This document shows positions 8,898 through 57,071 of a stretch of 64,000 nt of DNA, piece after piece. The notes under the pieces are model-generated. The model was not told the DNA's origin. It searched no databases and worked only from the letters and a program-made list of their open reading frames with translations. The translations under genes and the position numbers were made by a program. The DNA comes from a virus, in UHGV virus genome UHGV-0038495. One strand, given 5' to 3'. Each line of letters starts with the position of its first letter. Position 1 is the stretch's first letter.

Positions 8898-9259
8898 ATG
8901 AAAATTACCTCATTTGCGCGACTACACATAAATCCCATATATCTAGTAAATTCAGGTGGAAGGATAGTATTTGTGTCGACATAGACCCTATCTAACGTCT
9001 CATACTCCCTTCGGTCTTTAAGCTGCGGCGCGCATATCCATACTTTATTTCCTTTTGCATAACCTAAATAAGGAAAATCTTCTTTTTTGCTATATACTGT
9101 TACATTATTTCTTATAAATAAATCTCTTATTAAATCAAAATTCCTTGAAAAGATTATTGATACCCTTGCGGGCTTAGGTTTGCTACGACCGCCATAAAGT
9201 GACTGATAATAGTTAATACTATCATCTGTCCATAAAGTAGATTGTCTTTGTATCTTCAC
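8894..9259 (-). CDS. hypothetical protein, translationally coupled to dnaE
   Basis: Its start overlaps the DnaE stop codon. No motif recognised. Confidence 0.4.
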   Translation of the reverse strand: MKIQRQSTLWTDDSINYYQSLYGGRSKPKPARVSIIFSRNFDLIRDLFIRNNVTVYSKKEDFPYLGYAKGNKVWICAPQLKDRREYETLDRVYVDTNTILPPEFTRYMGFMCSRANEVIFI

Positions 9260-12200
9260 TATTCCTCACCTTCTTCTTCTATTCCTCTTGCACGTTCACT
9301 TGTTATCATTATATTACCAAAATCATCTATTTCTGATACTCTATATAAAGTATGTCCACCTTGGCTAGCATATTTTTTAGCTACGAAGTCATTATCTCCT
9401 CTTCTCATACCGTTAATAACTAACATATTTCCTTTTGTAAACCAAGATTTTTCAATTATTTTCTTTTTACCATCTTCGCCCATAATTGAAATCTGTTTGT
9501 CATATATACTATAATAAGCTTTTGGGAATTTAATTGTTACAACAGTTCCGCCGCGAGTTAATAAAGATATAATATTTTTATTTTTATCTTTTGCAATAAC
9601 AGTTCCTATAATTTTACTTAGCTCAAACATATTGATTGTTCTGCCGCCTTTTTCAAACGAATTTGCTACGCGTGGTTCCACTGGAAGAGTTTCAAAATCT
9701 CGTAAACCATATTTACCATTATTTATATTTTTTAATTCATGTTCATGGAAATATAAACAAGTGCTTTCCATTTCCCAAGAACTATAATTAGGACGTTTTA
9801 CATATTTATCCCAATCTTCTTTAAATATCTTTTCATTTAATCTAAATAATACTTCTTCACCATCTTCTTTTAACCATTCTCTTAAATTATCCATTTCTTT
9901 TTGATAAATTTTATCCCATTGCTTTATTTTTAATATTTTATCATAATTTACAATAGAAAACAAGTCAAGATAGTTATTCTCAATAAATGATAAAGCTCTT
10001 TCGTCTAATTTATAATTTTCTGCATCAGATTTACAAATAGCCTTTAAATATCTATTAAATTCAAAAACCGCGCGCTCATGATTAAGGTTACTTGGAACGA
10101 GGTCTTCGAGAATAAGCTTACGCATATTCTGTAAAGTTAAACGTTTCTTTTTATCACAAGTACGCCAAATATACCAACCCATTAATTCCATTCTATTGGG
10201 TTCTAAACTGTCAAAAGCACCACTCTTTATTAATGATAACACTGCTGGTTTTTTTAATTTAACTCTATTTAAAAAATCTGGTACAGATACAAAAGGTCGA
10301 TTACTTATAATCTGTGAGATAACATCATCACCAACACTAACCAAACTTTTAAAACCATAATATATACAATTATTATCTACATCTGGCGCGAATATGGCTT
10401 CTGACTTATTGACATCTGGCGGAATGATTTTAATACCATTCTTTTTCATCTTTCCTATTGCGATAGCTATTTTATTATAGTCTGCACTTTCATTTTCTTT
10501 TGCGGCACCGCTATCTGTTATAAGACACGCGCAGTTCCAAAAAATGATCGGATACTTAAAACATAAGTTCATTTCCTGTAACCCTATGATACTATATGCT
10601 AGAGTATGTGAAAGATTAAAACCATATCCCCTAGATGTAGCTACTAGAACGTTCCATACATAGCGACAAAGATTTGGGCTTAAGTCTTTTTCCTCCACAG
10701 TTTTATAATATTCTTCTTGGAGCTTCATGTATGCTGTTGGATTTTTTTTGGCTATAGATTTACGGAGGGAGTCCGCCCACGTTAATGACATACCACCGCA
10801 CTCAGGAAGTTGAACAAGCATCATGAACCTTTCCTGCGATTCACATATCCCATATGAAGACTTTAAGATTGGTTCTAAAAGTTTTTGTTCTTCTTTGGTC
10901 AGACCATATCGATCCATTTCTGCATACCACAAAAATATATCTTTCTTAAAGCGCGCATATTTGTTTAATGGCTGCTCATCTCCAGGTTCTTGCGCCATAA
11001 GTCTAATTACAGAATTTAATGTTGCTAAATCATCCAAACACTCTGGTTTAGTGAGCGCTATGCCCTGAACTCCTGATTGTTTTTCCATCTGAAATAATGA
11101 TTCAATCTTGTGTGACCAAATCATTTTCCACATATCTTTATTTTCTCTTTCAAGGTTATAAACACCAATCGCCTTTTCATAAGTTTCTTTTAAAGTTGCA
11201 CCCGGTTCTAGATATTTATATTCTACAAGTAGGTCTAAGCACGTATGAATTTTATCAAGAGCTTCGACCGAAAGTAAATCTATCTTGATCAAGCTTACAT
11301 CCTCTGAATCATGGAGATCAAACTGAGTAACCACATCTCCATTTGGAACTCTCATGAGCGCGGTTGATTTTGTAAAAGGCTCGTCTACGAAAATAACACC
11401 ACCTGCATGTTCTCCGATTCCGCATACAAGACCTTCTATCCTTTGCGCAACAGACCAAAGTTCTGGATATAACTTCATCTGTCTTACAAACTCTGGTACT
11501 GGTTTAAAACCATTTTCTTCATCGCCATAATAACACTGTTTTAAAGTACGCGCAATACCTCTATCTACTGGTACAAGAGAAGCAAGATAAAGAGAAATGT
11601 CTACATCTATACCTAACCCACGCGCGGCAGTCTGCAAGGCACTTTTACTTTTTTCAGTTCTAAAAGTAATAACATTAGACACGCGGTCTTGCCCATAAAA
11701 ATCTCTTAAAGCCTGAAGTGTTTGTGCTCGTCTTCCCCCTTCGATATCTGTATCTATATCTAAGACTGATACTCTAGATGGATTAAGGAAGCGCCATGGA
11801 TATAATTTGGTTGTTTCCCAAAGAGGATTTATCTGAATTATATCTAAAAGATATAATAATATAAACCCTACGCCAGAACCACGACCGCATCCTACCAACG
11901 TGCCTGAATCCCAGCACACTTCAATAATTTTTTGAAGATTTAAGAAATATGCGCTCCAGTGCGCGTTGTTTACCTCTGAACTTTCCCAAGTCATCTGTAA
12001 ATTAATTTCAACTTCATCGTATATTCTCTGAGTCTGTAAGCGCACATCAGATTCTAATTTTTCAATGATTGCTCTCGCTAAAACTTTATCGCCATTAAAT
12101 GATGATTCAACGAACTTTTTAAGTGAAGGAATCCTCTTAAAATACACGTCTGGGATTATTTTTAAAGTCGGCTCATTCCATACAAGAGAAGGAATAACTA

Positions 12201-13122
12201 AAGGTTTCATTAAACTATAATCTCGCGCGCGTGCAGCAACTTCTGCGATTGTTTCATTTGCTTTTACGATTATCTCTTCTTCTATAAAATCATTTAATTC
12301 ATTACCAGACATTAAATAAGTTGTAGCATAGAATGATTTTACTTCACGTTCACCTTCTTGTGCATTAAGAAAAGCTTCGTGAATTGGTGCATCTTCAGGT
12401 CTAGCATAATGACTATCGGTCGTGATTATATATGGTATATCTAATTCTTCAGACAATTTTAACAAACCTGCATTTGCTATTTTCTGCTCTTTATATTTAG
12501 AAGGCTGTAATTCTAATAAGAAATTACCTTTACCAAAAATACTCTGCATTGATAAACACCAACCAAGAATATTATTCCAAAGCGTAGGATCTGGATTCTC
12601 ATTATATTGGAGTAGTTTATTATCTAAGAATCCACCCAAGCAGGCTGTCGCGCCAACTACATGACCCGGATTTGCGCTTATAATATCAATTAAATCTTGA
12701 TAGTATGTAGGTCTGCGCGCCATCTTACCTGTTTTCCAACTGCGCATCCAAGCACGTGTTGATAATTCTCTTATTTGTTCATGTCCTGTTGCATCTAAAG
12801 CGAGTAAAATAAAATGGTAAAATTTATCCTGACCTTTAATAAAGTTATCTTTAGTCAATTCATCTCTACAAAGATATATTTCATTACCTCTAATAACTTT
12901 AAAGTCTGGATGCTTTTCTTTGATTTTATTATAATACTTTTCTATTTTTATCGCATTTGATACAGTTTCATGTTCTGTTATGGCTATTACCTTATGTCCA
13001 AGTGCAATCGCTGTATCTATTAACCCTCCTATTGTATTAATAGAATCTCTTAAATACAAATTGCTATAATCGGTATGATTGTGTAATGAGCCTATGTATT
13101 CTATTGTTCTTAAAGAATCCAT
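9259..13122 (-). CDS. dnaE: DNA polymerase III alpha subunit (DnaE-type, family C) with N-terminal PHP domain
   Basis: PHP motifs LHNHTDYS and AITEHET. Finger/palm region with VVTQFDLHDSEDVSLIKIDLLS (compare DnaE DFLGL). 1287 aa. Confidence 0.85.
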   Translation of the reverse strand: MDSLRTIEYIGSLHNHTDYSNLYLRDSINTIGGLIDTAIALGHKVIAITEHETVSNAIKIEKYYNKIKEKHPDFKVIRGNEIYLCRDELTKDNFIKGQDKFYHFILLALDATGHEQIRELSTRAWMRSWKTGKMARRPTYYQDLIDIISANPGHVVGATACLGGFLDNKLLQYNENPDPTLWNNILGWCLSMQSIFGKGNFLLELQPSKYKEQKIANAGLLKLSEELDIPYIITTDSHYARPEDAPIHEAFLNAQEGEREVKSFYATTYLMSGNELNDFIEEEIIVKANETIAEVAARARDYSLMKPLVIPSLVWNEPTLKIIPDVYFKRIPSLKKFVESSFNGDKVLARAIIEKLESDVRLQTQRIYDEVEINLQMTWESSEVNNAHWSAYFLNLQKIIEVCWDSGTLVGCGRGSGVGFILLYLLDIIQINPLWETTKLYPWRFLNPSRVSVLDIDTDIEGGRRAQTLQALRDFYGQDRVSNVITFRTEKSKSALQTAARGLGIDVDISLYLASLVPVDRGIARTLKQCYYGDEENGFKPVPEFVRQMKLYPELWSVAQRIEGLVCGIGEHAGGVIFVDEPFTKSTALMRVPNGDVVTQFDLHDSEDVSLIKIDLLSVEALDKIHTCLDLLVEYKYLEPGATLKETYEKAIGVYNLERENKDMWKMIWSHKIESLFQMEKQSGVQGIALTKPECLDDLATLNSVIRLMAQEPGDEQPLNKYARFKKDIFLWYAEMDRYGLTKEEQKLLEPILKSSYGICESQERFMMLVQLPECGGMSLTWADSLRKSIAKKNPTAYMKLQEEYYKTVEEKDLSPNLCRYVWNVLVATSRGYGFNLSHTLAYSIIGLQEMNLCFKYPIIFWNCACLITDSGAAKENESADYNKIAIAIGKMKKNGIKIIPPDVNKSEAIFAPDVDNNCIYYGFKSLVSVGDDVISQIISNRPFVSVPDFLNRVKLKKPAVLSLIKSGAFDSLEPNRMELMGWYIWRTCDKKKRLTLQNMRKLILEDLVPSNLNHERAVFEFNRYLKAICKSDAENYKLDERALSFIENNYLDLFSIVNYDKILKIKQWDKIYQKEMDNLREWLKEDGEEVLFRLNEKIFKEDWDKYVKRPNYSSWEMESTCLYFHEHELKNINNGKYGLRDFETLPVEPRVANSFEKGGRTINMFELSKIIGTVIAKDKNKNIISLLTRGGTVVTIKFPKAYYSIYDKQISIMGEDGKKKIIEKSWFTKGNMLVINGMRRGDNDFVAKKYASQGGHTLYRVSEIDDFGNIMITSERARGIEEEGEE

Positions 13123-25573: not shown

Positions 25574-25617
25574 AACTTTCTATAATTATTATAACAAAAT
25601 TTTTTGAGTTTTTGAAG
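25574..25617 (-). promoter_or_regulatory. Conserved sigma-A-type promoter cassette (TTCAAA-N17-TGTTATAAT)
   Basis: Minus-strand reading is cTTCAAAaactcaaaaaattttgTTATAATaattatagaaagtt, followed by GAGGAA and ATG of an unlisted 52-aa ORF. Confidence 0.55.
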
Positions 25618-27158: not shown

Positions 27159-27246
27159 ATCTTTTTTCTCTCTCCTTAACTTTGTATATTTATTATATCA
27201 AAATTTTTAAGAGCAGTAAACTATTTTTACTGCTCTTTTACTGTGT

Positions 27247-34408: not shown

Positions 34409-34777
34409 TTAAATCGGTGGGTTTGTATCATCTATATAACCATTATCTTCTAAAGTAAAGTCCATAGCTTTAGCTTGAGCATACTTAATTCCATCTCCAT
34501 CAGATGAAGTATTTTCATCTCTATTCTTATCTACAACGCGCGCGAGTACAACTGAAACCCCTATGCCTAATGGAGAAAAGATCGCGGTCCAGCAAATTAA
34601 AGAACCTACATAATCCATTTGTATACTTAAAACTGCGAGTCGATATCCTCCGGCTAGTCCAAGCGCGAGAAAAAGTGTAAGGTAAAGCGCGAGACGGTTA
34701 GTAAAACCTAACTTTTTTAAATGTCTAAAAGGCGCGGTTATAGCTCGACGTATCTTATGTTTAGACTTTTTGCTCAT
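34409..34777 (-). CDS. Holin-like membrane protein
   Basis: Two hydrophobic segments (LALYLTLFLALGLAGG and ICWTAIFSPLGIGVSVVLA). Basic N-terminus. Lies immediately downstream of the endolysin. Confidence 0.45.
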   Translation of the reverse strand: MSKKSKHKIRRAITAPFRHLKKLGFTNRLALYLTLFLALGLAGGYRLAVLSIQMDYVGSLICWTAIFSPLGIGVSVVLARVVDKNRDENTSSDGDGIKYAQAKAMDFTLEDNGYIDDTNPPI

Positions 34778-35580
34778 TATGCTTTACCCATGAGTTTTGC
34801 GAAGCGATAAAAGATCGTGACAGCTTGTTCTCTGGAGAGTTGGTCTGCCCACATATAGTTTGGCTCTCCCTTCGCGTCCTTACCCGAACCCGTGACAATG
34901 CCATTCTTGATGGCCCACTCGCGCGCCTCTGCCGAATAAACATTGCAGTCATTATCTTGAAGAGTTTTTCTATACTCTTTCATCATTGAATTGAATTGCT
35001 CTTGTGTCATTTCTTCTTCCTCCTTTTGCGGCGTTTGATTTACGCCCTTTACTCTATTCATAAAATTTTCCCATCTAGCATTACCCTCTGAGGTATGGCA
35101 CATTGGTGCTGGGCATAGCTTCCCGGTCACGGACCAATGTCTTGTCACATTAGAGCTAGGTATATGGTACTTCGACATAAGTGCGCGCGTCAATTCAACA
35201 GCGTGGTTAATAGTTGCTTCCGGTATATAATAATTACCTTTTGAATCAGTATGGCTAACCATTTCTATTGATATTGAATTGCCGTTTGTACATTTTCCTT
35301 TAAGTTGCGCACCACCATTAGTATACTTTTGTCTATCTCCCACCGCATATGCGGCATGGGTATCGGGTACACATTGGTAGATTATATTACCTTCATCACA
35401 AATGTAATGCGCACTAGCCTTGCGGTCTGTGGTGTGGAAATAGTTTGCGTTACCCTTGGCCGTAGCCTTCAGACCGCTATTCGCGGTGTAGTGAAGGACT
35501 ATATACTTGATACTTGATGTAGAGCGAGGGGTTTGGTTATAGTACCTCGCGCGGATTGAGCTGTTTATAGTATAACTCAA
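34777..35580 (-). CDS. Endolysin: N-acetylmuramoyl-L-alanine amidase (Amidase_2/PGRP) with C-terminal SLH-like wall-binding module
   Basis: IVLHYTA, HY.CDEGNIIYQCVPD, AYAVG, ISIEMV, CP. C-terminus AREWAIKNGIVTGSG....MWADQLSREQAVTIFYRF resembles an SLH repeat. Confidence 0.75.
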   Translation of the reverse strand: MSYTINSSIRARYYNQTPRSTSSIKYIVLHYTANSGLKATAKGNANYFHTTDRKASAHYICDEGNIIYQCVPDTHAAYAVGDRQKYTNGGAQLKGKCTNGNSISIEMVSHTDSKGNYYIPEATINHAVELTRALMSKYHIPSSNVTRHWSVTGKLCPAPMCHTSEGNARWENFMNRVKGVNQTPQKEEEEMTQEQFNSMMKEYRKTLQDNDCNVYSAEAREWAIKNGIVTGSGKDAKGEPNYMWADQLSREQAVTIFYRFAKLMGKA

Positions 35581-35603: not shown

Positions 35604-36533
35604 TTATTTAATAGTTTTATATAAAATCCAATCTAAATTAAGATTATCTTTGATTAAATCATAATTCAAATCTTCTCTATTCTTATGCGCTATATTAAAC
35701 TCTGGTTTATATTTATTAATAAGAATAGCTTCTAATAAGTCTAATTCTTTTTTAGAGCCGCAAGTTGTATAGTATATTTCGCCTTTAAAATTATATAATT
35801 TATCTTGAGTATGCTGCTGGACTCTTCTTTTTAGAGAAATTGTCTGTCCAATATAAACAATATTGTCATTAGATACATATTTATATAAATAAAAATTATC
35901 ATTAGAAATATTAGAAACTTCTTCCAAAGAGTTAGGATTTTCATAAAAAGTAAAAGTTTTAGTTGTTTTATCTAAAATAAGAAAACCTTTGTTTATAAGT
36001 TCTTTGAGAACAGTTCTATATGTTGTATGAGAAAAATTACATTTATCAAGAATATCTTTTGTACTTAATGGTTGAGAAAGTTGAGAACTTAAAGAAGAAA
36101 AATAACACCATGCTTTGAATTCATTAGCAGATAATATTTTCATAGCATAGAACATTGCTTGATAAGAAAAAACAATGTTCTGAACATTTTCTTCTTTATT
36201 TATACAAATACTTCTTTGATTTGGCACTTTCTTTGTAATAATATTAAAAGGATCTTCATAAAAATTCCAAATTTTCATTCGTTTTTCTATAGTACTTTCA
36301 GAAGTTTCTTTTAAAAACCCTTTTTCAATCAGCTCTTTAATCGCTTTATTATATTTATATTCAGTTAATCCAGAATTTTTATTAGATAAAGCAAAATCAG
36401 TTGATTGATTCTTAATATAAGAATATAAAACAAATCCTTCAGGAGAAAGACTATTTAAAATTACACTTATATCTTTTATTTCTCCTCTTATAATTCTTAT
36501 AAATTTTTGGTTGTTGAAATTTGTTGTAGCCAT
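35604..36533 (-). CDS. GIY-YIG endonuclease with N-terminal winged-helix repeats (free-standing homing-endonuclease-like)
   Basis: C-terminal FYLYKYVSNDNIVYIGQTISLKRRVQQH....E. Two KxIKELIxKGFL wHTH-like repeats in the N-terminal half. Confidence 0.55.
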   Translation of the reverse strand: MATTNFNNQKFIRIIRGEIKDISVILNSLSPEGFVLYSYIKNQSTDFALSNKNSGLTEYKYNKAIKELIEKGFLKETSESTIEKRMKIWNFYEDPFNIITKKVPNQRSICINKEENVQNIVFSYQAMFYAMKILSANEFKAWCYFSSLSSQLSQPLSTKDILDKCNFSHTTYRTVLKELINKGFLILDKTTKTFTFYENPNSLEEVSNISNDNFYLYKYVSNDNIVYIGQTISLKRRVQQHTQDKLYNFKGEIYYTTCGSKKELDLLEAILINKYKPEFNIAHKNREDLNYDLIKDNLNLDWILYKTIK

Positions 36534-36846
36534 TCTCTGCTACCTCCTTTTATTTTTTAAATTTTGAAATATATAATTGTAGATTATCACTATCCTCAAA
36601 ATAAAATACATTCATCCAAGGTCTATCTCTATTAGGAGAAATTTTAACTATTTGGAAGTGATTATCTGTTAAAAACCTTGCAAGAGCAAGTGAGAAGCAA
36701 GGGAATAATTTTTTTTTCATTCTTTCACTCCTTTTTATTGGTATAATTTGCCTACTTTGTCTTTTTAAATTTTAAAATCTTAAAATAATAGGGAAGTAGA
36801 ATCAACCACTTCCCTAAAATATATAAAAATTATTTACAGCGCCTTA

Positions 36847-37317
36847 TTATTCATTGACCTTAATATTTTTACTACGGCGGGCGCGCACTTTATCATATAG
36901 ATCTGTTTTACTCTCTATATACTCCTTTAATTCTTTTCTCATTACCGTAACCTCTTCATTAATAAACTTTATTTCATCTCTACAGCGATTTGCTGCGCGA
37001 TAAATCATATAACCATTCTTATCTTTTTCTTCTTTTGCATTAACTCCATTCTCTAAATGCTCAAGAATCTTTAACTGCTGACTAAGCTCTATGTCTCTTA
37101 TCCAAGTAAGATAATTAATCATAGCTCTTGTTTCTGCAATAGCAAGACCGGTCTTTTCAGAACAAAACTCCATATCTTCAGGCGCGCACTGTGCTGTGCC
37201 TATAAAAACATTATCTGCAACACAAATAGTTACTGAAGCAAAGCCATCCTCATCAAACTGATACTCTTTCTTAATTCTTCTAATGTCTAACATTCTGTTT
37301 CCTTTCATTAATATCAT
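36847..37317 (-). CDS. hypothetical protein
   Basis: ORF on the coding strand. Last gene of the kinase/phosphoesterase operon. Confidence 0.35.
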   Translation of the reverse strand: MILMKGNRMLDIRRIKKEYQFDEDGFASVTICVADNVFIGTAQCAPEDMEFCSEKTGLAIAETRAMINYLTWIRDIELSQQLKILEHLENGVNAKEEKDKNGYMIYRAANRCRDEIKFINEEVTVMRKELKEYIESKTDLYDKVRARRSKNIKVNE

Positions 37318-37822
37318 TTAAAATTGTTTCTATATTAACTGGACAACAATCATGCGCCTCCAGTGAAACACAATATATCTTCTTATCTTTTATCTCAAAC
37401 TTTTCTTTGCTATGTGTATGCGCTGAAATATTCCATACATTAACGGGGTCGTCAAAATTATTGACAAAAGTAGGGTAATGTGACAGATAAAAACGCGTGT
37501 TCTTAGATGCTTTAAGCCTAGCTCCAAACTGTACGTCCTCAAATATACCTTCTTCAACATAGGTTTTTATCCTTTGGTCTGTGTCATGGTTACCGATAAT
37601 TAAGACCTTATGACCATTCATCTGTTTTATATATTCTATAGCGACAGCTGTATTACCTAGCGCGCAATCTCCTAGTACATAGACCGTATCCTCTGGAGTC
37701 ACGCGCGCGTTATGTCTTTCTACTATTGCTTCATTCATTTCTTCAATAGAATTAAATCCACGTGTTTTCCATATAAAATCTTTATCGTGACAAAAATGCC
37801 AGTCTCCGCAAAACCAAATCAT
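37280..37822 (-). CDS. Calcineurin-like metallophosphoesterase
   Basis: GDWH, VLGDCALG, IIGNHD, SAHTH motifs. Confidence 0.7.
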   Translation of the reverse strand: MIWFCGDWHFCHDKDFIWKTRGFNSIEEMNEAIVERHNARVTPEDTVYVLGDCALGNTAVAIEYIKQMNGHKVLIIGNHDTDQRIKTYVEEGIFEDVQFGARLKASKNTRFYLSHYPTFVNNFDDPVNVWNISAHTHSKEKFEIKDKKIYCVSLEAHDCCPVNIETILNDINERKQNVRH

Positions 37823-37845: not shown

Positions 37846-38364
37846 CTAAAAAGTAATACTCCAATACTCCATATTAAAGAATTCTTTCCAAAAGCGCTTT
37901 TCACTATCAGTTACTGGTTCAATAGAATCGGTCTGTTTTGAGATTACTTCAGAACCAACCTGCTCGCGCCCTAATCTTTTCTTGTCTCTTGCAATAGAAA
38001 TAGAAGGTTTTGTATCTATATGCATTACAATAACTTTATAACCATGTTCCTGCAAAGGTTCTTTAATAGCATTTAAAATTTTCTGTCTACTTGAGAAGTT
38101 TAAATGAGTTGCATCTAAAATAACATTATTTATTTCTGCTTTTATAGCTTCACAAGCCAAATGTGCGAACGTCTTAAATACTTTCTTTTCTTTTGCAAAA
38201 TATGCTTCATTCTCTTTTACAAGAGAAAAACGGACTGCATCGCGCGAAATCACTATAGAGTCCGAAAACTTAGACTGAAAATCACGTACCCAGGTAGACT
38301 TCCCCGAGCCACTTATTCCCATCATTAAATATAATTTTTTCATTAATGAAATACCTCTTTCCAT
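37846..38364 (-). CDS. P-loop polynucleotide-kinase-like kinase
   Basis: MMGISGSGKST Walker A. ISRDAVR. Size 172 aa. Operon with the metallophosphoesterase. Confidence 0.55.
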   Translation of the reverse strand: MERGISLMKKLYLMMGISGSGKSTWVRDFQSKFSDSIVISRDAVRFSLVKENEAYFAKEKKVFKTFAHLACEAIKAEINNVILDATHLNFSSRQKILNAIKEPLQEHGYKVIVMHIDTKPSISIARDKKRLGREQVGSEVISKQTDSIEPVTDSEKRFWKEFFNMEYWSITF

Positions 38365-38687
38365 TCATTTTTTTTAATAATTCTTCTCATATTTTCTCTT
38401 CCTACTGGATTAGCAGTATGGAGATGAATTGATATATTGTTTATTCCTTTTTCTTCCATTTTATCAAGTATCTTTATATAATCACCGCCATAAGCTACAT
38501 ATTCTCCTGCATCATGGTCTAAAGATATTTCTTCAATATCATTACGGAAAGCGAGAATTGTTTTTATTGCTTCTTTTGTGGTTATAATCCACATATAACC
38601 CTGTGGAGCAGGTCTTACATCATCTATCCAAAGTTTCATCATTTTATTTTTTCCTCTCTTTAACTTCTGATTGCTATTGCATAGCAA
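38343..38687 (-). CDS. hypothetical protein (first gene after a promoter-operator module)
   Basis: ORF on the coding strand. No motif recognised. Confidence 0.35.
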   Translation of the reverse strand: MLCNSNQKLKRGKNKMMKLWIDDVRPAPQGYMWIITTKEAIKTILAFRNDIEEISLDHDAGEYVAYGGDYIKILDKMEEKGINNISIHLHTANPVGRENMRRIIKKNEWKEVFH

Positions 38688-38691
38688 TCAC

Positions 38692-38735
38692 ACTTTCTAT
38701 AATAATTATAACAAAAAATTTACTGTTTTTGAAAA
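38692..38735 (-). promoter_or_regulatory. Conserved promoter cassette copy, followed by an 18-nt perfect palindrome
   Basis: Minus-strand reading TTTTCAAAAACAGTAAATTTTTTGTTATAATTATTATAGAAAGTG. Downstream lies TTGCTATtgcATAGCAA (38670..38688), then the ribosome-binding site of the 38687 gene. Confidence 0.5.
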
Positions 38736-38771
38736 TAGAAAAAGTCCTACTGTTAAGTAGGACTTAATTTA

Positions 38772-40094
38772 TTACATTTCTTCAAGTATATCTTCTGAAA
38801 GATTGGTCGCGCTTTCTGCTGTTTTTTCTACAATAATACCAGAAATTAACTTAAACAAATAATTTTTTAACTTATATGCTTCAAATTTTGGTGAATTTAC
38901 CTTACGTACAACTACACCTTCTCTTACATGAGTTCCATCTATTGGATCTGGGCCACTAGCATACTGTTCCGCCATCTGATAAACCCAATTACCCGCAGTC
39001 TTAAAACCTAACTGGTCTAAGGTTTCTTGGTCTGGAATAAATGTGCGCAGAAAAAGAGGCGGAGTCTTTATATTCATACGCTCACAATAAATTCTCATTA
39101 CATCTGGTGGTATTTCTATAACATCTTTATCCTCGTTAGTCATTGTCATTCTATAAACATAAATATCATGTTCTGCTGGCGTGCAACCATATGAGAATAT
39201 TATTTTATTACCATACTGCTTCTGATAATCCTTTGGAACTTTTGCTTCTCCCATAATAGGAGTTCCATCATTAGTATAACCAACAATTTCATAATAAGCA
39301 GTTACATCTTTAAATAACTTATCTGCAAATTCCTTTTCGCAATCTATTCTAAATGTATTATCATTATAGTAACCATCGCCTTCTTTGCGCGGATCCAGTA
39401 CCGTTCTCCTAGTACCAGATACATACCCCCAATCATAAACTGGCTTACCTTCGCGCTTAAAGATATGATCTAAGAACGACTTCTTAAATCCCTTTAATGT
39501 TGGAAGATGCGCAGTTCTACCTGAAGTACCATGGAGCTTAAGTGTAATCTCTATAAGGTCGCCTGGCGCGAACCTATCAAGATTATAAGCCAACTGCTGT
39601 GTATCTACATGCTCTTCAAACAAAGGCGCAATAGGAACAGAAAACTTCTTCTTTTTTGGAGTATAAGTACCTTCACGATGCTGGCGGCGCGGAACATACT
39701 TAGTTGCAATAACATGACCATTTAAAGTATCTACACAATCACCTATATTTACTTCGTCAAGATTTATACCTGTATACACAAGAGCAGACAATGGTAAGAA
39801 TAAGCCATCTGATTTTTCTCCTCTCAGTGCGATTGTTTTTACATTTCTCTTGTTAGGGTCTAAGTAACCTCCAATATTATTACCTGCGGCGTCCTTCTTT
39901 CTGCAAAGATTATTTTCTTCACAGAATTCCTCAGAAAGCTGTGCGCCTTCTGAGATATAAACACCTATTTCTCCTTCAGCGTAAGAAAGGTCTACACAAA
40001 TAGTATTACCAAAACATTCACCAAGCTGTAGTCTATCTGCATTTGGATGTTTTCTAAGATTCTTTAATGTTGTTACATAAGCATAATTAGACAT
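38772..40094 (-). CDS. Rnl2/Rnl5-like ATP-dependent RNA ligase with N-terminal tRNA-binding-type OB domain
   Basis: N-terminus LKNLRKHPNADRLQLGECFGNTICVDLS....GVYISEGAQL (Myf/Trbp111-type tRNA-binding OB signature). Motif I ITLKLHGTSG (KxHGxN as in T4 Rnl2). Motif IV REGVVVRK. Motif V YKLKN. Confidence 0.55.
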   Translation of the reverse strand: MSNYAYVTTLKNLRKHPNADRLQLGECFGNTICVDLSYAEGEIGVYISEGAQLSEEFCEENNLCRKKDAAGNNIGGYLDPNKRNVKTIALRGEKSDGLFLPLSALVYTGINLDEVNIGDCVDTLNGHVIATKYVPRRQHREGTYTPKKKKFSVPIAPLFEEHVDTQQLAYNLDRFAPGDLIEITLKLHGTSGRTAHLPTLKGFKKSFLDHIFKREGKPVYDWGYVSGTRRTVLDPRKEGDGYYNDNTFRIDCEKEFADKLFKDVTAYYEIVGYTNDGTPIMGEAKVPKDYQKQYGNKIIFSYGCTPAEHDIYVYRMTMTNEDKDVIEIPPDVMRIYCERMNIKTPPLFLRTFIPDQETLDQLGFKTAGNWVYQMAEQYASGPDPIDGTHVREGVVVRKVNSPKFEAYKLKNYLFKLISGIIVEKTAESATNLSEDILEEM

Positions 40095-40098
40095 TATA

Positions 40099-40917
40099 TC
40101 ACTCTCCTATCATTCTCCAAGATTTATAATACTTATTTCTTTTCTTTGCGGCTTCTAATATTTTTTCTGCAATTTCACTCTCTTCCTTATCTTCGATTTT
40201 CTTCTCAGATATAAGCCATTTTGCTGCTTCATTTGCTGTTTTAAAGGAATGTGTGACCTTCTTTTTAGTTGAAATCGTAACAATGGTTCCGCGCGGCAGG
40301 TCAGATTCAGTCCACTTAGGCTTAGGTTTAGCCTCTTCAAATTCGGTCAAGCGTGCCACTATCTTTTTTATTTCTGCTTTTTTATATTTCTCTTCACAAG
40401 AGTGAATAAACTGTAAAAGTATAGCATCATTTAAAGCATTATGATCCTGTTCTTTTGTATGGTCAAATGCCTGTGCAACTCTTAATAAACCACGCTGCTT
40501 AATATTATATCGCTGACAAAATCTCGTACCATAATCAGTAAGTCCGCCCGCTATATCGCCTAAAATCAGTCTTGCGCACGGGTCACTGGCACAATCCTTA
40601 AACGTACCTTTTACAAAATGAATATCTTCTGAACCCCAACAAAACCATTCGGGATTCCAATTTACTTCATTTTCTTTTGCCTCTTCCTCCTGTGCAAGTA
40701 CCCAATTATAAAATTCATTGAATACTTCTATTGCGCCTTTAGCATTATCAATATCTTCAATAGTAATTCCTGTAAGCTCTGTAATCATTTTACTAATTTT
40801 ATACCTACTCTCTGGCTTTACGAGAGAATAAAAAAAGTGACCATTCTCACAAACCGCGCCAATGGATATAATTCTATGACTAAACTGTGTTCCTTCAAAA
40901 TCTAAAAAATATTTCAT
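40099..40917 (-). CDS. DEDDh (DnaQ-like) 3'-5' exonuclease with C-terminal extension
   Basis: Exo I FLDFEGT. Exo II-like. Exo III HNALNDA. Confidence 0.7.
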   Translation of the reverse strand: MKYFLDFEGTQFSHRIISIGAVCENGHFFYSLVKPESRYKISKMITELTGITIEDIDNAKGAIEVFNEFYNWVLAQEEEAKENEVNWNPEWFCWGSEDIHFVKGTFKDCASDPCARLILGDIAGGLTDYGTRFCQRYNIKQRGLLRVAQAFDHTKEQDHNALNDAILLQFIHSCEEKYKKAEIKKIVARLTEFEEAKPKPKWTESDLPRGTIVTISTKKKVTHSFKTANEAAKWLISEKKIEDKEESEIAEKILEAAKKRNKYYKSWRMIGE

Positions 40918-41666
40918 TATCTATCTCCCTTTGCTAAAATATTCTTAAATAAATCTATAAATGCTTCCTTATTTCTTTCGTTTATATTTGTTGAAGTCAA
41001 AGTTGTTTTACAATCATATAACTCATATGGAATTTCGCGCGGACCTACTTTGAAAACTTCAGAACTATTCTTTATATTCATTAAAACTATGCTGCGCGCA
41101 GCAGATAATTCATATAAATTAGCATAGTTATTATTACAATATTTTTCAGCAGAATCTATTAATCTTAAATGATTTGCTAATGACTTGCCGTTAGAAACTT
41201 CCTTCTTTTCTTTTTCTCTTGCATCATCTAAATAAGATTTAGCTTGACCTAATATAGAGTTTATAGTCTTATTTGGATTTCCCTGTAAAAAAGAAAATCT
41301 CATATTTCTTAATTTTTCCCATTCTTCTATATATTTTTCATTTATTATTACATAGGACGTAAATAATAATTCGATAGTTGAAAAGTTACCTTTATCTAAT
41401 TCTTTAAAGAAGTCTATTAAATTCTTTGTAGTAATTTTATTATCATTAGCAGCTCCTATTTTAAATGTTGCATTTTTATTATAGCCAAACAAAACTTCTT
41501 TATAAGATGGTACTGTTATACAATACATATCTATATCAGAATTTTCATCTGCAAGACCATAATTCTGGCTTCCATAAAGAAAATATCCAAAGACTTCTTT
41601 ACTAGCTTCTATATTCGCCATTTCAGCCATGTGTTTCATATTTTCTATTATTGTTTTTCTTTCCAT
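40917..41666 (-). CDS. Pol-beta-superfamily nucleotidyltransferase (ANT/KNTase-like)
   Basis: FLYGSQNYGLADENSDIDMY matches GS-x9-13-SDID of minimal nucleotidyltransferases (AadA/LinB/KNTase-like). About 150 aa of helical C-terminus. 249 aa. Confidence 0.5.
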   Translation of the reverse strand: MERKTIIENMKHMAEMANIEASKEVFGYFLYGSQNYGLADENSDIDMYCITVPSYKEVLFGYNKNATFKIGAANDNKITTKNLIDFFKELDKGNFSTIELLFTSYVIINEKYIEEWEKLRNMRFSFLQGNPNKTINSILGQAKSYLDDAREKEKKEVSNGKSLANHLRLIDSAEKYCNNNYANLYELSAARSIVLMNIKNSSEVFKVGPREIPYELYDCKTTLTSTNINERNKEAFIDLFKNILAKGDR

Positions 41667-41686: not shown

Positions 41687-41730
41687 AACTTTCTATAATT
41701 ATTATAACAAATTTTTTTGAGATTTTGAAA
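41687..41730 (-). promoter_or_regulatory. Conserved promoter cassette copy
   Basis: aactttctataattattataacaaatttttttgagattttgaaa (plus strand). Minus-strand reading gives TTCAAA-N17-TGTTATAAT. Confidence 0.5.
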
Positions 41731-41808
41731 AGTGAAAAAATGGCTTGTATAAAACAAGCCATTTAAAAGAAATTTATGTTTAACACTAATACTAATTAGT
41801 GATTTTAA

Positions 41809-42705
41809 CTATTTTTCAGTTATAAAAGCATTATAGCCTTTAACTCTTAAATCATCTACAACTTTCTGCGCATTTGCTTTTTTGCTAAAAACGCCAACCT
41901 GACATTTATAAAGTCCATTTATAAGTTTACAATAAGCATTTTTATACCCTGCACCAATAGTATCTTCTAATCTTTTTATTCTATCTACAAGAGCAAGGCA
42001 ATTAGTCTGAGATTTAAATGCGCCAACCTGTACTGTATATAAAACCTTTTTAACTGGTTCTTCAATAGGACTAATAGTTGTCTTTCTATAAAAGCAAATT
42101 ACATTATCAACTGCGCGATTGTAGTTCTCTGAGGTTATAGATTCACCTTTGACTAAAATTTTTGTACTGCCGCCGCCATCTAAGTTTATTGCATGAGTAC
42201 AGTGTAAACCAAGCATAATATTAGTTAAGCCAGTAAAAGTTAGACCTCTGCCTTCAACAGCGACAAGAAATATCTTATTAGCATTATAACCAAGTGCAGT
42301 TCTGCGCGCCTTATAATCGAGTTCTTTAGCTATATCAGTCGAAACTCTTACACCATTGCACACAAGTGGAGGATATCCACTGATAAAATCAATGAATTTA
42401 CCTTCATCAATATTACCATATTCTAATTCACCTGTTGCGCGATTAATACCCATACCAATCTTATATTTTACTGTAGTAGAAATTGCTTTATCACCTGTTC
42501 TATACTCAAACATAGTAACGCCGTCAGCCATATTAAACAAGCCGCCATTACATATAACGTCTGGTTTTATTGTCTGCCTCTTGTAAAAAGAGCTTAAAGT
42601 CTCGCGCGGCTGCTGACATAAAGCAAAATGAATCTTTGAAAGTTCTGATTTTTCAAACTCTACTACAGTTATATCCGCATTATTTACATATTTATATGTT
42701 TTCAA
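41809..42705 (-). CDS. Phosphodiester glycosidase (NAGPA/DUF2233) fused to C-terminal SPOR domain
   Basis: CNGGLFNM, RTALGYN, AINLDGGGST (NAGPA core). The C-terminal ~75 aa YTVQVGAFKSQTNCLALVDRIK....GYNAFI is a SPOR-type fold signature. Confidence 0.55.
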   Translation of the reverse strand: MKTYKYVNNADITVVEFEKSELSKIHFALCQQPRETLSSFYKRQTIKPDVICNGGLFNMADGVTMFEYRTGDKAISTTVKYKIGMGINRATGELEYGNIDEGKFIDFISGYPPLVCNGVRVSTDIAKELDYKARRTALGYNANKIFLVAVEGRGLTFTGLTNIMLGLHCTHAINLDGGGSTKILVKGESITSENYNRAVDNVICFYRKTTISPIEEPVKKVLYTVQVGAFKSQTNCLALVDRIKRLEDTIGAGYKNAYCKLINGLYKCQVGVFSKKANAQKVVDDLRVKGYNAFITEK

Positions 42706-45024: not shown

Positions 45025-45089
45025 TTTTTTTCTCCTTTTCTTTTTTTTCTATAATTATTATAGCAAATTTTTTTAAAAAATTTTAATAG

Positions 45090-54176: not shown

Positions 54177-54220
54177 AACTTTCTATAATTATTATAACAA
54201 AATTTTTATTATTTTTCAAT
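54177..54220 (-). promoter_or_regulatory. Conserved promoter cassette copy
   Basis: aactttctataattattataacaaaatttttattatttttcaa. Confidence 0.5.
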
Positions 54221-54913: not shown

Positions 54914-55094
54914 GTTATTTTCCTTTTATTTTTCTTTCTATAATTATTATAGCAAAATTTTTAAAGTTTTAAAAATGAGAGAATTTTGGTTGACGGTATT
55001 CACAGGTTTCTCTCAGAACCACCGGTAAAGTAATCTCTCAACCTTACAAATATATTATATCAAAAATTTTAAAGTTTTTGCAATAGAAAACAAA

Positions 55095-57014: not shown

Positions 57015-57071
57015 CCTCAACTTTCTATAATTATTATAACAAATTTTTTGAGAATTTGAAAGTCGGAGCCG
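57015..57071 (-). promoter_or_regulatory. Promoter cassette copy (long variant, near-identical to 61935..61991)
   Basis: caactttctataattattataacaaattttttgagaatttgaaagtcgga. Confidence 0.5.

Follow-up and report, generated by a model that had tools for sequence, protein, structure and literature searches.

The window analyzed here, a stretch of 64,000 nucleotides (nt) from the virus genome UHGV-0038495, carries a gene for a Pol-beta nucleotidyltransferase, directly followed by a gene for a DEDDh exonuclease. Together with the gene of a predicted Rnl5-type RNA ligase they form one terminator-bounded operon, of which the nucleotidyltransferase and exonuclease genes are the first two cistrons. 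The two operons of this region, the second of which encodes end-healing enzymes, probably constitute a phage RNA heal-and-seal system, in which the nucleotidyltransferase, a predicted member of the RlaP family, and the exonuclease would represent the end-remodelling (add-and-trim) half acting before ligation. Its purpose is most likely to restore tRNAs or other RNAs after cleavage by ribotoxins of the host. We propose more tentatively, as an idea that may well not hold, that RlaP, exonuclease and ligase work as a single add-trim-seal machine with random addition, anchored trimming and the ligase as a filter for length and pairing.

Gene layout

All genes of the region are located on the minus strand. 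A sequence-only reading of positions 40099-41666 had described two overlapping open reading frames (ORFs) just upstream of an RNA ligase gene, and this layout was confirmed. The span consists of exactly two ORFs, 40917-41666 with 249 amino acids (aa) and 40099-40917 with 272 aa, encoding nucleotidyltransferase and exonuclease, respectively. Stop codon and start codon share 1 nt as TAATG, and a GGGAG Shine-Dalgarno sequence is located 8 nt upstream of the exonuclease start. The ATG of the ligase gene (38772-40094) follows 4 nt after the exonuclease stop, with GGAG upstream of it. From the 1-nt overlap we infer that translation of nucleotidyltransferase and exonuclease, and thereby the amounts of both proteins, are coupled. 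Neither ORF is a chance ORF, since the nucleotidyltransferase has homologues at 24-94% identity as well as matches to phrog_388 and NTP_transf_2, and the exonuclease matches RNase_T and has 64 homologues.

Assignment of the nucleotidyltransferase to the RlaP family

The peptide FLYGSQNYGLADENSDIDMY, which had been quoted in the sequence-only reading, corresponds to residues 29-48 of the nucleotidyltransferase. It contains the Pol-beta core motif G32-S33...D44-I-D46, which fits the pattern hG[GS]-x(9-13)-Dh[DE]h and is invariant or nearly so in two family alignments. The Pol-beta nucleotidyltransferase fold proposed from this motif is supported by profiles as well as by a confident structural model. 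In Pfam the protein matches NTP_transf_2 with 21.3 bits (cut-off 21), and the PHROG family phrog_388 (nucleotidyltransferase) is matched with an E-value of 2e-19. Most of the homologues carry PF10127, the RlaP domain, including precomputed matches in close relatives, and among 14 relatives scanned singly the domain was found in 11 (best E-value 9e-7). Aligned with hhalign, the profile of the nucleotidyltransferase matches NrdC.11 of the T4-like Aeromonas phage 25 with a probability of 96% (E-value 3e-9, reaching residue 143) and the RlaP encoded beside an RNA ligase in Lysinibacillus phage LC76P1 with an E-value of 1.4e-20 over 174 columns. A broader family profile retrieved 3289 proteins, and PF10127 accounts for nearly all among the matches listed.

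The AlphaFold2 model (AF2; predicted local distance difference test, pLDDT, of 90) shows an N-terminal nucleotidyltransferase domain and a helical C-terminal domain. Compared with models of viral proteins, it matches phage nucleotidyltransferases over the full length (Bacillus phage BCD7, template modelling score (TM) 0.70, E-value 8e-12). The fold matches in the PDB are HalB, kanamycin nucleotidyltransferase (KNTase) and LinB, all of them weak (TM 0.33-0.46, root-mean-square deviation (rmsd) >10 Å). Searched against the PDB by sequence, the single protein gave chance matches only and the profile gave weak KNTase and MNT-type matches; PfRlaP, the RlaP of Pseudomonas fluorescens, was not among the PDB matches of either the sequence or the fold search. 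The gene lies in the same operon as the RNA ligase, two genes upstream of it, an arrangement which recurs in relatives. Judged by these profile matches, the nucleotidyltransferase is assigned at family level to RlaP/PF10127, the family of T4 NrdC.11. The earlier label of an ANT/KNTase-like protein does not hold for the family. It applies to the general fold only, because the PDB matches are weak.

RlaP stands for "RNA ligase-associating Pol-beta". The Pseudomonas enzymes PfRlaP and PaRlaP, which have been characterised only recently, add one to two nucleoside monophosphates (NMPs) of any base to the 3'-OH of RNA and do not extend DNA. Their preferred substrate is the 5' half of a broken-tRNA mimic, and they partly restore aminoacylation of a tRNA that is short by one nucleotide. 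In the crystal structure of PfRlaP, an N-terminal nucleotidyltransferase domain and a C-terminal helical domain form a cleft (PMC12776372).

Some further observations concern relatives of this protein. HalB, an oligodeoxyadenylate-synthesising nucleotidyltransferase of the Hailong defence system, is the best PDB match of the model (E-value 5e-5, TM ~0.4) and ranks above the aminoglycoside nucleotidyltransferases; on the basis of the model, RlaP and HalB may be distantly related. In the BFVD database the model also matches two giant-virus proteins, A0A3G4ZN96 ("Putative exonuclease", 794 aa) and A0A3G4ZV07 ("small RNA degrading nuclease 5-like", 370 aa), which from their annotations may be nucleotidyltransferase-exonuclease fusions. 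No such fusion occurs among the 120 matches listed of the broad RlaP profile search, which are dominated by T4-like NrdC.11 proteins. In a distant cassette without exonuclease (L003:6746-7447) a gene encoding 233 aa overlaps the end of the RlaP gene. Its product contains a second, degenerate RlaP-like N-terminal region (jackhmmer, E-value 1e-25) and a CodY-type helix-turn-helix (PF08222, E-value 6e-8).

Assignment of the exonuclease and its C-terminal domain

The call of a DEDDh exonuclease made from the sequence is correct. The score of the protein for RNase_T (PF00929) is 40.4 bits at a cut-off of 24, and the E-values of its homologues reach 1e-172. All five DEDDh residues (D6, E8, D98, H159 and D164) are present and invariant in 23 homologues of 25-83% identity. 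The best PDB match of the structural model (pLDDT 90.8) is the nuclease domain of 3'hExo/ERI-1 (1w0h, E-value 5e-7, TM 0.70, rmsd 3.5 Å), followed by ERI2, CRN-4, RNase T and a CRISPR-associated DnaQ domain. The PolC exonuclease domain appears at rank 36, and no chain of the Pol III epsilon subunit was found in the top 50 fold matches. The dnaq model TIGR00573 reaches 20.1 bits against a cut-off of 71.5, and the PolC models are also far below their cut-offs. Some of the homologues bear the label KapD-like in their sources, and KapD is an ERI-1-like 3'-exoribonuclease (PMC11736430). The protein is thus predicted to be an ERI-1-like DEDDh 3'-5' exonuclease, presumably acting on RNA 3' ends, and not a Pol III epsilon subunit.

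Residues 205-272 represent a separate conserved domain with the order beta-beta-alpha-alpha-beta-beta. It was identified only by a profile search against 1.84 billion representative sequences and subsequent Pfam analysis of multi-domain matches. The search yielded 199 proteins, most of them exonuclease fusions of 250-300 aa. The other matches are small stand-alone proteins and several GIY-YIG or HNH homing endonucleases, and in two proteins (P0212 and P0131) the matching region overlaps a NUMOD1 domain called by Pfam. Applied to the isolated C-terminal segments, Pfam gave one sub-threshold NUMOD1 match (E-value 0.017); a PDB profile search with this domain was uninformative. Because the profile matches reach GIY-YIG and HNH homing endonucleases and overlap NUMOD1, the exonuclease is predicted to carry a nucleic-acid-binding module of the homing-endonuclease type (NUMOD1-like). 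Functionally, this module would parallel the SAP domain which recruits ERI-1/3'hExo to duplex stems.

The RNA ligase

The third protein of the operon (440 aa) matches phrog_968 (E-value 1e-61) and PF09414, and its relatives match PF21189 and PF09414. The model TIGR02306 (RNA_lig_DRB0094) is matched with an E-value of 4e-14 over its N-terminal half only; the score of 52.4 bits stays below the cut-off of 151. In hhalign, the ligase profile aligns with DraRnl of Deinococcus from the OB domain to motif I (residues 5-192, probability 98.3%, E-value 1.9e-14), and K186 of the KLHG motif is placed on the adenylylation lysine K165 of DraRnl. Since the alignment extends from the OB domain through the motif I lysine, the protein is classified as a putative Rnl5-type RNA ligase. 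It is 100 aa longer than DraRnl and diverges in the C-terminal half. Its identity to ligases of Bacillus and Lysinibacillus phages is 42-45%, and no PDB chain was matched by sequence. As substrate, Rnl5 ligases require a duplex nick whose ends are properly juxtaposed and whose 3'-OH is on a ribonucleotide, and they accept DNA both as the 5'-phosphate strand and as the template strand (PMC5397189). Their physiological role has been described as uncharted.

Linkage of the genes across lineages

For an analysis seeded with the exonuclease, each protein of the cassette was looked for in six-frame translations of 30 IMG/VR loci, metagenome contigs and the window, and the exonucleases were clustered at 60% identity into 18 clusters (viral or phage-like metagenome contigs). 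In 13 of the 18 clusters an Rnl5-like ligase gene follows on the same strand at most 670 nt downstream, and the order of exonuclease and then ligase is constant in all 13. In 12 clusters a RlaP gene is present on the same strand at a distance of up to about 5 kb, usually 0.4-4.5 kb upstream of the exonuclease, and at least one RNA-repair gene is found in 16. In one genome-derived locus (L093) the ligase is located upstream of the exonuclease instead. Since the exonuclease occurs about once per genome of 100-400 kb, its adjacency to the ligase cannot be due to chance. The sequence-only reading had treated nucleotidyltransferase and exonuclease as the unit. The conserved unit is the pair of exonuclease and ligase, and the tight abutment of the first two genes is specific to one clade. 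The whole cassette with the same gene order is kept in the close relatives L001, L002, L013 and L047. The related contigs originate from gut and rumen metagenomes and from metagenome-assembled genomes labelled Clostridia.

In addition, a set seeded with RlaP was built from the best 80 of 379 IMG/VR relatives and clustered at 90% and 75% identity. Single-linkage clustering at 60% was discarded, as it chained 59 loci into one cluster. The 90% threshold gave 46 clusters; 17 of them have the ligase no more than 6 kb from RlaP, and 11 of these 17 contain the exonuclease too. In 50,697 deposited phage genomes, tblastn detected the ligase in 381 records and RlaP in 25, and no member of the exonuclease family was found there (E ≤ 1e-3). 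Plasmids gave only two marginal matches of the exonuclease. A scan of one genome per prokaryotic species revealed 51 further exonuclease loci, of which only 11 contain any repair gene. In a neighbour-joining tree two clades of exonucleases are free of the cassette, one from Ruminococcus/Clostridia and one mainly from Erysipelotrichaceae, and nearly all viral or phage-like lineages are linked to it.

Two features of the related loci are mentioned here as separate observations. The phage contig L007, which has the exonuclease-ligase pair and a Thg1 gene nearby, also contains an endonuclease-like gene (L007:4276-4995) with three in-frame TAG codons. The exonuclease, ligase, Thg1 and sigma factor genes of L007 have none, which suggests recoding of TAG in part of this genome. 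Phage Phass-1, which carries RlaP, is filed under "code 15 clade". Furthermore, two unrelated phage lineages have a gene of the sigma-70 family upstream of the exonuclease gene. In L005 and L006 (L005:4150-5001, L006:4150-5001) it overlaps the start of the exonuclease gene, and in L007 (L007:3035-3937) it lies about 1 kb upstream. One cellular Ruminococcus locus (L086:5024-5707) also has a sigma-70 gene in an upstream position.

Organization of the two operons

The features of the region are listed in Table 1. Terminator-like hairpins are enriched in it, with 11 found and 2.1 expected. The RlaP-exonuclease-ligase operon is followed by a second operon, bracketed by a promoter-like site and a terminator, which comprises the genes for a cREC domain protein, a kinase, a phosphoesterase and orf156. 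The cREC stop codon and the kinase start overlap as TAATG, in the same way as those of the first two genes of the other operon. For the cREC domain, processing of 2',3'-cyclic phosphates has been predicted in the literature, and the protein is therefore a candidate cyclic-phosphate esterase. No family match was obtained for orf156 in Pfam, NCBIfam or PADLOC. Homologues of it occur in L022, L054, L093 and L003. In the three loci checked (L022, L054 and L003) the gene follows directly after that of the metallophosphoesterase, and because of this recurrent position orf156 may be an unrecognised component of RNA repair.

Both operon promoters are located inside a 22-nt motif, TTGTTATAATnATTATAGAAAG, which occurs on the minus strand in 8 copies in the window compared to 0.05 expected. 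It consists of an extended -10 box and a conserved downstream block, and two of the copies lie directly after terminators, ahead of both RNA-repair operons. The motif looks like one class of phage promoters defining a co-regulated set of genes.

Table 1. Predicted features of the RNA-repair region and copies of the repeated promoter motif in the window
Feature	Position	Strand	Remarks
NAGPA phosphodiester glycosidase fused to SPOR domain	41809-42705	-	upstream neighbour of the operon
Terminator-like hairpin, 11 bp stem and T run	41738..41764	-	ends upstream NAGPA/SPOR gene; 5' boundary of the operon
Promoter-like site TTCAAA-17-TG-TATAAT	41689..41729	-	inside repeated 22-nt motif TTGTTATAATAATTATAGAAAG
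RlaP-family (PF10127) Pol-beta nucleotidyltransferase, 249 aa	40917..41666	-	G32-S33...D44-x-D46, conserved E99, C-terminal helical domain
Exonuclease, catalytic DEDDh domain, about aa 1-185	40363..40917	-	D6, E8, D98, H159, D164; ERI-1/3'hExo-like fold
Exonuclease, C-terminal domain, ~68 aa (aa 205-272), and stop codon	40099..40305	-	homology to NUMOD1-type module
Rnl5-type ATP-dependent RNA ligase, 440 aa	38772..40094	-	N-terminal OB domain, motif I KLHG (K186)
Terminator-like hairpin	38742..38765	-	directly after ligase stop; 3' boundary of RlaP-exonuclease-ligase operon
Second copy of the same promoter motif	38693..38733	-	in front of end-healing operon
cREC (PF20274) domain protein	38343..38687	-	E-value 1e-20; likely real start at ATG 38642
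P-loop polynucleotide 5'-kinase	37846..38364	-	AAA_33, phrog_505, partial match to bacterial Pnkp; likely start 38343
Calcineurin-like metallophosphoesterase, presumed 3'-phosphatase	37280..37822	-	phrog_547
orf156	36847..37317	-	last gene of healing operon; no family match
Terminator-like hairpin	36789..36816	-	ends second operon
GIY-YIG protein with helix-turn-helix domains	35604-36533	-	between cassette and amidase
Amidase_2 protein	34777-35580	-	cell-wall enzyme, other flank of RNA-repair region
Copies of 22-nt motif	25576-25597, 27180-27201, 38693-38714, 41689-41710, 45045-45066, 54179-54200, 54934-54955, 57021-57042	all -	

The RNA-repair region is flanked on both sides by genes of cell-wall enzymes, the NAGPA/SPOR protein and the amidase. 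The window has a G+C content of 33% and originates from a large phage. Among its genes are those for a DnaE-type polymerase, a two-subunit topoisomerase II, NrdD, RecJ and DnaB, and it carries five tRNA genes. The polymerase (9259-13122) contains PHP, pol III alpha, finger and HHH domains but no built-in DEDDh domain. A megablast search with the cassette gave no match to the RNA-repair region at the DNA level in deposited phage genomes.

Proposed mechanism

In the proposed pathway, the healing enzymes of the second operon would convert breaks with 2',3'-cyclic phosphate and 5'-OH into 3'-OH and 5'-phosphate ends. Where nucleotides have been lost, RlaP would add one or two untemplated NMPs to the 3'-OH. 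As any base is added, one or two at a time, most of these products should be wrong. Through the NUMOD1-like module at its C-terminus, the exonuclease would stay bound to the neighbouring duplex and would then remove surplus or wrong 3' nucleotides, and the Rnl5-type ligase would capture an end of the right length at a juxtaposed duplex nick with a ribo 3'-OH. The family assignments, the catalytic residues, the operon structure and the conserved linkage of exonuclease and ligase are established by the present analysis, and the activity of RlaP and the substrate preference of Rnl5 come from published work. That the exonuclease acts on RNA 3' ends and antagonises or edits the products of RlaP, and that the proteins form any physical complex, is what we infer from these relationships. 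Two points were left open by the authors of the RlaP study, namely how the addition of any nucleotide, one or two at a time, aids repair and whether a later hydrolysis step trims the products (PMC12776372). The add-trim-seal mechanism fits both. With its gene in the same operon and a linkage to the ligase far tighter than that of RlaP, the exonuclease represents an obvious candidate for the missing trimming step. The evidence backs one of the three roles which the sequence-only reading had offered for the gene pair, namely RNA repair by addition or trimming of nucleotides.

If the three proteins indeed act as a single machine, the phage could restore tRNAs even after attack by nucleotide-excising ("smart") anticodon nucleases such as RloC, and Rnl5 ligases would gain a defined partner and substrate. 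The giant-virus proteins annotated as exonucleases that match the nucleotidyltransferase model would, if confirmed, represent fusions of the first two activities. RlaP, Rnl5 ligases, cREC and the healing by phage kinase and phosphatase are already known. The only earlier hint for a pairing of Rnl5 and DEDDh proteins was a single Deinococcus operon, and the pairing is now seen in most of the viral and phage-like exonuclease lineages. The literature searched yielded no description of such cassettes with a DEDDh exonuclease of their own as a conserved component, although the RlaP-defining paper of 2016 may mention one; the papers retrieved were a survey of jumbo phages, the Deinococcus study and an unrelated one on a DNA ligase of Entamoeba. 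The survey of jumbo phages lists nucleotidyltransferases, ligases, kinases and phosphoesterases, and the terms DEDD, RNase T and DnaQ are absent from it. The analysis defines an exonuclease family with a homing-endonuclease-type module, for which the deposited phage genomes gave no match, and a concrete three-enzyme system, which is a variation on known phage RNA repair and not a new principle.

Alternative explanations

Several observations weigh against the proposed role in RNA repair. The single nucleotidyltransferase sequence remains below the RlaP/PF10127 cut-off (20.6 compared to 23 bits), and its match is confined to the N-terminal half of the model. RlaP abuts the exonuclease in the clade of the window only, so that a stoichiometric complex of both proteins is not a general feature. 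The cellular exonuclease clades occur in housekeeping contexts without repair genes, as seen in two examined loci of the Ruminococcus clade, one of them from the cultured isolate Ruminococcaceae bacterium P7. Because of these cellular clades without the cassette, the exonuclease family is not intrinsically an RNA-repair family, and phages have recruited, or exchanged, a cellular ERI-1-like enzyme. In addition, DEDDh enzymes often cleave DNA as well as RNA, and the homing-endonuclease relatives of the C-terminal module bind DNA. As no family member was found in cultured phages, a genetic system is also not at hand. Finally, the only Rnl5 ligase with a phenotype points to DNA repair: loss of DraRnl sensitises Deinococcus radiodurans to ionizing radiation, and loss of the DEDDh-like gene DR_B0095 adds modestly to this sensitivity (PMC5397189).

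Some of these points would equally be expected if the same enzymes repaired nicks and breaks in phage DNA via ribonucleotide intermediates, with the exonuclease anchored on DNA by its NUMOD1-like domain. A comparable scheme is known from bacterial LigD, where ribonucleotides added by a polymerase are trimmed by a 3' resecting activity before a ligase closes the nick with a ribo 3'-OH. Besides the DNA-binding relatives of the C-terminal domain and the Deinococcus phenotype, the acceptance of DNA strands by Rnl5 ligases is in line with such a pathway. We nevertheless regard it as rather unlikely, since characterised RlaPs leave DNA 3' ends unextended, the neighbouring operon encodes cREC and cyclic phosphates are a signature of RNA breaks, and the nearest structural relatives of the catalytic domain are exoribonucleases. 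Moreover, the phage has its own tRNA genes, and the RlaP-ligase-kinase set of other phages has been interpreted as tRNA repair. It was also considered that the exonuclease is the proofreading subunit, an epsilon analogue, of the DnaE-type replicase and that its RNA-repair neighbourhood is incidental, which the sequence-only reading had named as one of two outcomes that would speak against its own proposal. The polymerase indeed has no DEDDh domain of its own, the window contains no second member of this exonuclease family, and phrog_192 (DNA polymerase exonuclease subunit) matches residues 4-73. Epsilon subunits carry a flexible polymerase-binding tail, and in some DnaE enzymes the PHP domain itself can proofread. 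The C-terminus of the phage exonuclease is a folded NUMOD1-like domain instead, its gene lies 27 kb from that of the polymerase in a terminator-bounded operon with RlaP and ligase, and it travels with the RNA ligase across lineages. Together with the dnaq score far under the cut-off and with 3'hExo/ERI-1 as best folds, this makes a proofreader very improbable, and the candidate was rejected.

The nucleotidyltransferase might instead modify a small molecule or make a signal, as in aminoglycoside or lincosamide resistance, in Abi/MNT toxin-antitoxin systems or as a HalB-like synthase, with the exonuclease degrading immune nucleotides of the host. Such a function is suggested by the PDB fold matches, by weak profile matches to a 120-aa nucleotidyltransferase-domain protein (9xbd, E-value 0.007) and to KNTase (E-value 0.069) and by a PADLOC model of a CRISPR-associated DEDDh protein that matches the N-terminus of the exonuclease. 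However, these folds are weak in comparison with the phage RlaP-type match described above, no NCBIfam resistance model or PADLOC defence model matches the nucleotidyltransferase, and its consistent neighbours are RNA ligase, kinase and phosphoesterase. We give this explanation almost no credence. Resistance nucleotidyltransferases (KNTase, ANT(4') and LinB) were rejected, with Foldseek TM values of 0.38-0.42 and an rmsd >11 Å in addition to the KNTase profile match. The same applies to an Abi/MNT toxin-antitoxin nucleotidyltransferase, for which the PADLOC match is sub-significant (E-value 0.004) and no HEPN or antitoxin partner is present beside the RNA-repair genes. The resistance-like and anti-defence roles raised in the sequence-only reading are thus left without support, because no such models match and the protein is assigned to RlaP/PF10127.

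Comparison with known systems

Compared with T4 NrdC.11 and the RlaPs of P. fluorescens and P. aeruginosa, the phage nucleotidyltransferase shows the same GS...DxD Pol-beta core, followed in the structural model by a C-terminal helical domain, and RNA ligase, kinase and phosphoesterase are its neighbours. Its length of 249 aa is below that of the T4-like NrdC.11 proteins (about 325 aa), and its gene is followed by an overlapping exonuclease gene. The operons characterised in the RlaP paper are of the type RtcB-RlaP-RtcA, and an exonuclease is not mentioned there (PMC12776372). The exonuclease shares with ERI-1, 3'hExo and KapD the five DEDDh residues, and, like ERI-1/3'hExo with their SAP domain, joins the catalytic domain to a small nucleic-acid-binding module. 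It is only about 20% identical to ERI-1, and its module is C-terminal and NUMOD1-like, whereas the SAP domain of ERI-1/3'hExo is N-terminal. In contrast to KapD of B. subtilis, which acts in sporulation, the phage exonucleases are encoded in RNA-repair operons.

In D. radiodurans, DraRnl (DR_B0094), the founding Rnl5 ligase, is co-transcribed with DR_B0095 (PMC5397189). As in the phage, an Rnl5-type ligase with OB and adenylyltransferase domains is paired here with a DEDDh-like exonuclease gene, and the N-terminus of DR_B0095, taken from the sequence of plasmid MP1, can be aligned to the exonuclease family in the region of motif I (E-value 4e-7). The Deinococcus operon differs in that the ligase comes first, RlaP, kinase and phosphoesterase are missing and a radiation-sensitivity phenotype has been observed. 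DR_B0095 is apparently split over two frames in strain R1 and, as far as it is readable, has no NUMOD1-like domain. In R1, motif I is found in one frame, and a motif II-like WGDYD together with a H...DD...N stretch is found in an overlapping ORF of another frame, which suggests a frameshift or a sequencing error; the gene (L043:4026-4744) is missing from the PLSDB gene table. The operon is a precedent for the pairing of ligase and exonuclease, and it also leaves room for a role in DNA or hybrid repair.

The known heal-and-seal systems for tRNA repair in phages, such as Pnkp and Rnl1 of T4 or the RlaP-Rnl-Pnk sets of Bacillus phage PBC2 and Lysinibacillus phage LC76P1, likewise belong to large phages with tRNA genes and bring together a kinase, a phosphoesterase and an ATP-dependent RNA ligase, in some cases also RlaP. 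In the window, kinase and phosphatase are separate proteins, a cREC domain is present, and the exonuclease is of a type that tblastn (E ≤ 1e-3) did not find in the deposited phage genomes. A further comparison, which is an analogy only, can be drawn to the RNA-editing core of kinetoplastids, an add-trim-seal outline of which appears in the discussion of PMC5397189. Kinetoplastid editing is directed by guide RNAs, specific for U and carried out by exonucleases and ligases of other families. With terminal uridylyltransferase, 3' exonuclease and Rnl2-type ligase, it would nevertheless follow the same logic of adding, trimming and sealing a nick at a duplexed RNA 3' end as proposed here for RlaP, the ERI-1-like exonuclease and the Rnl5-type ligase.

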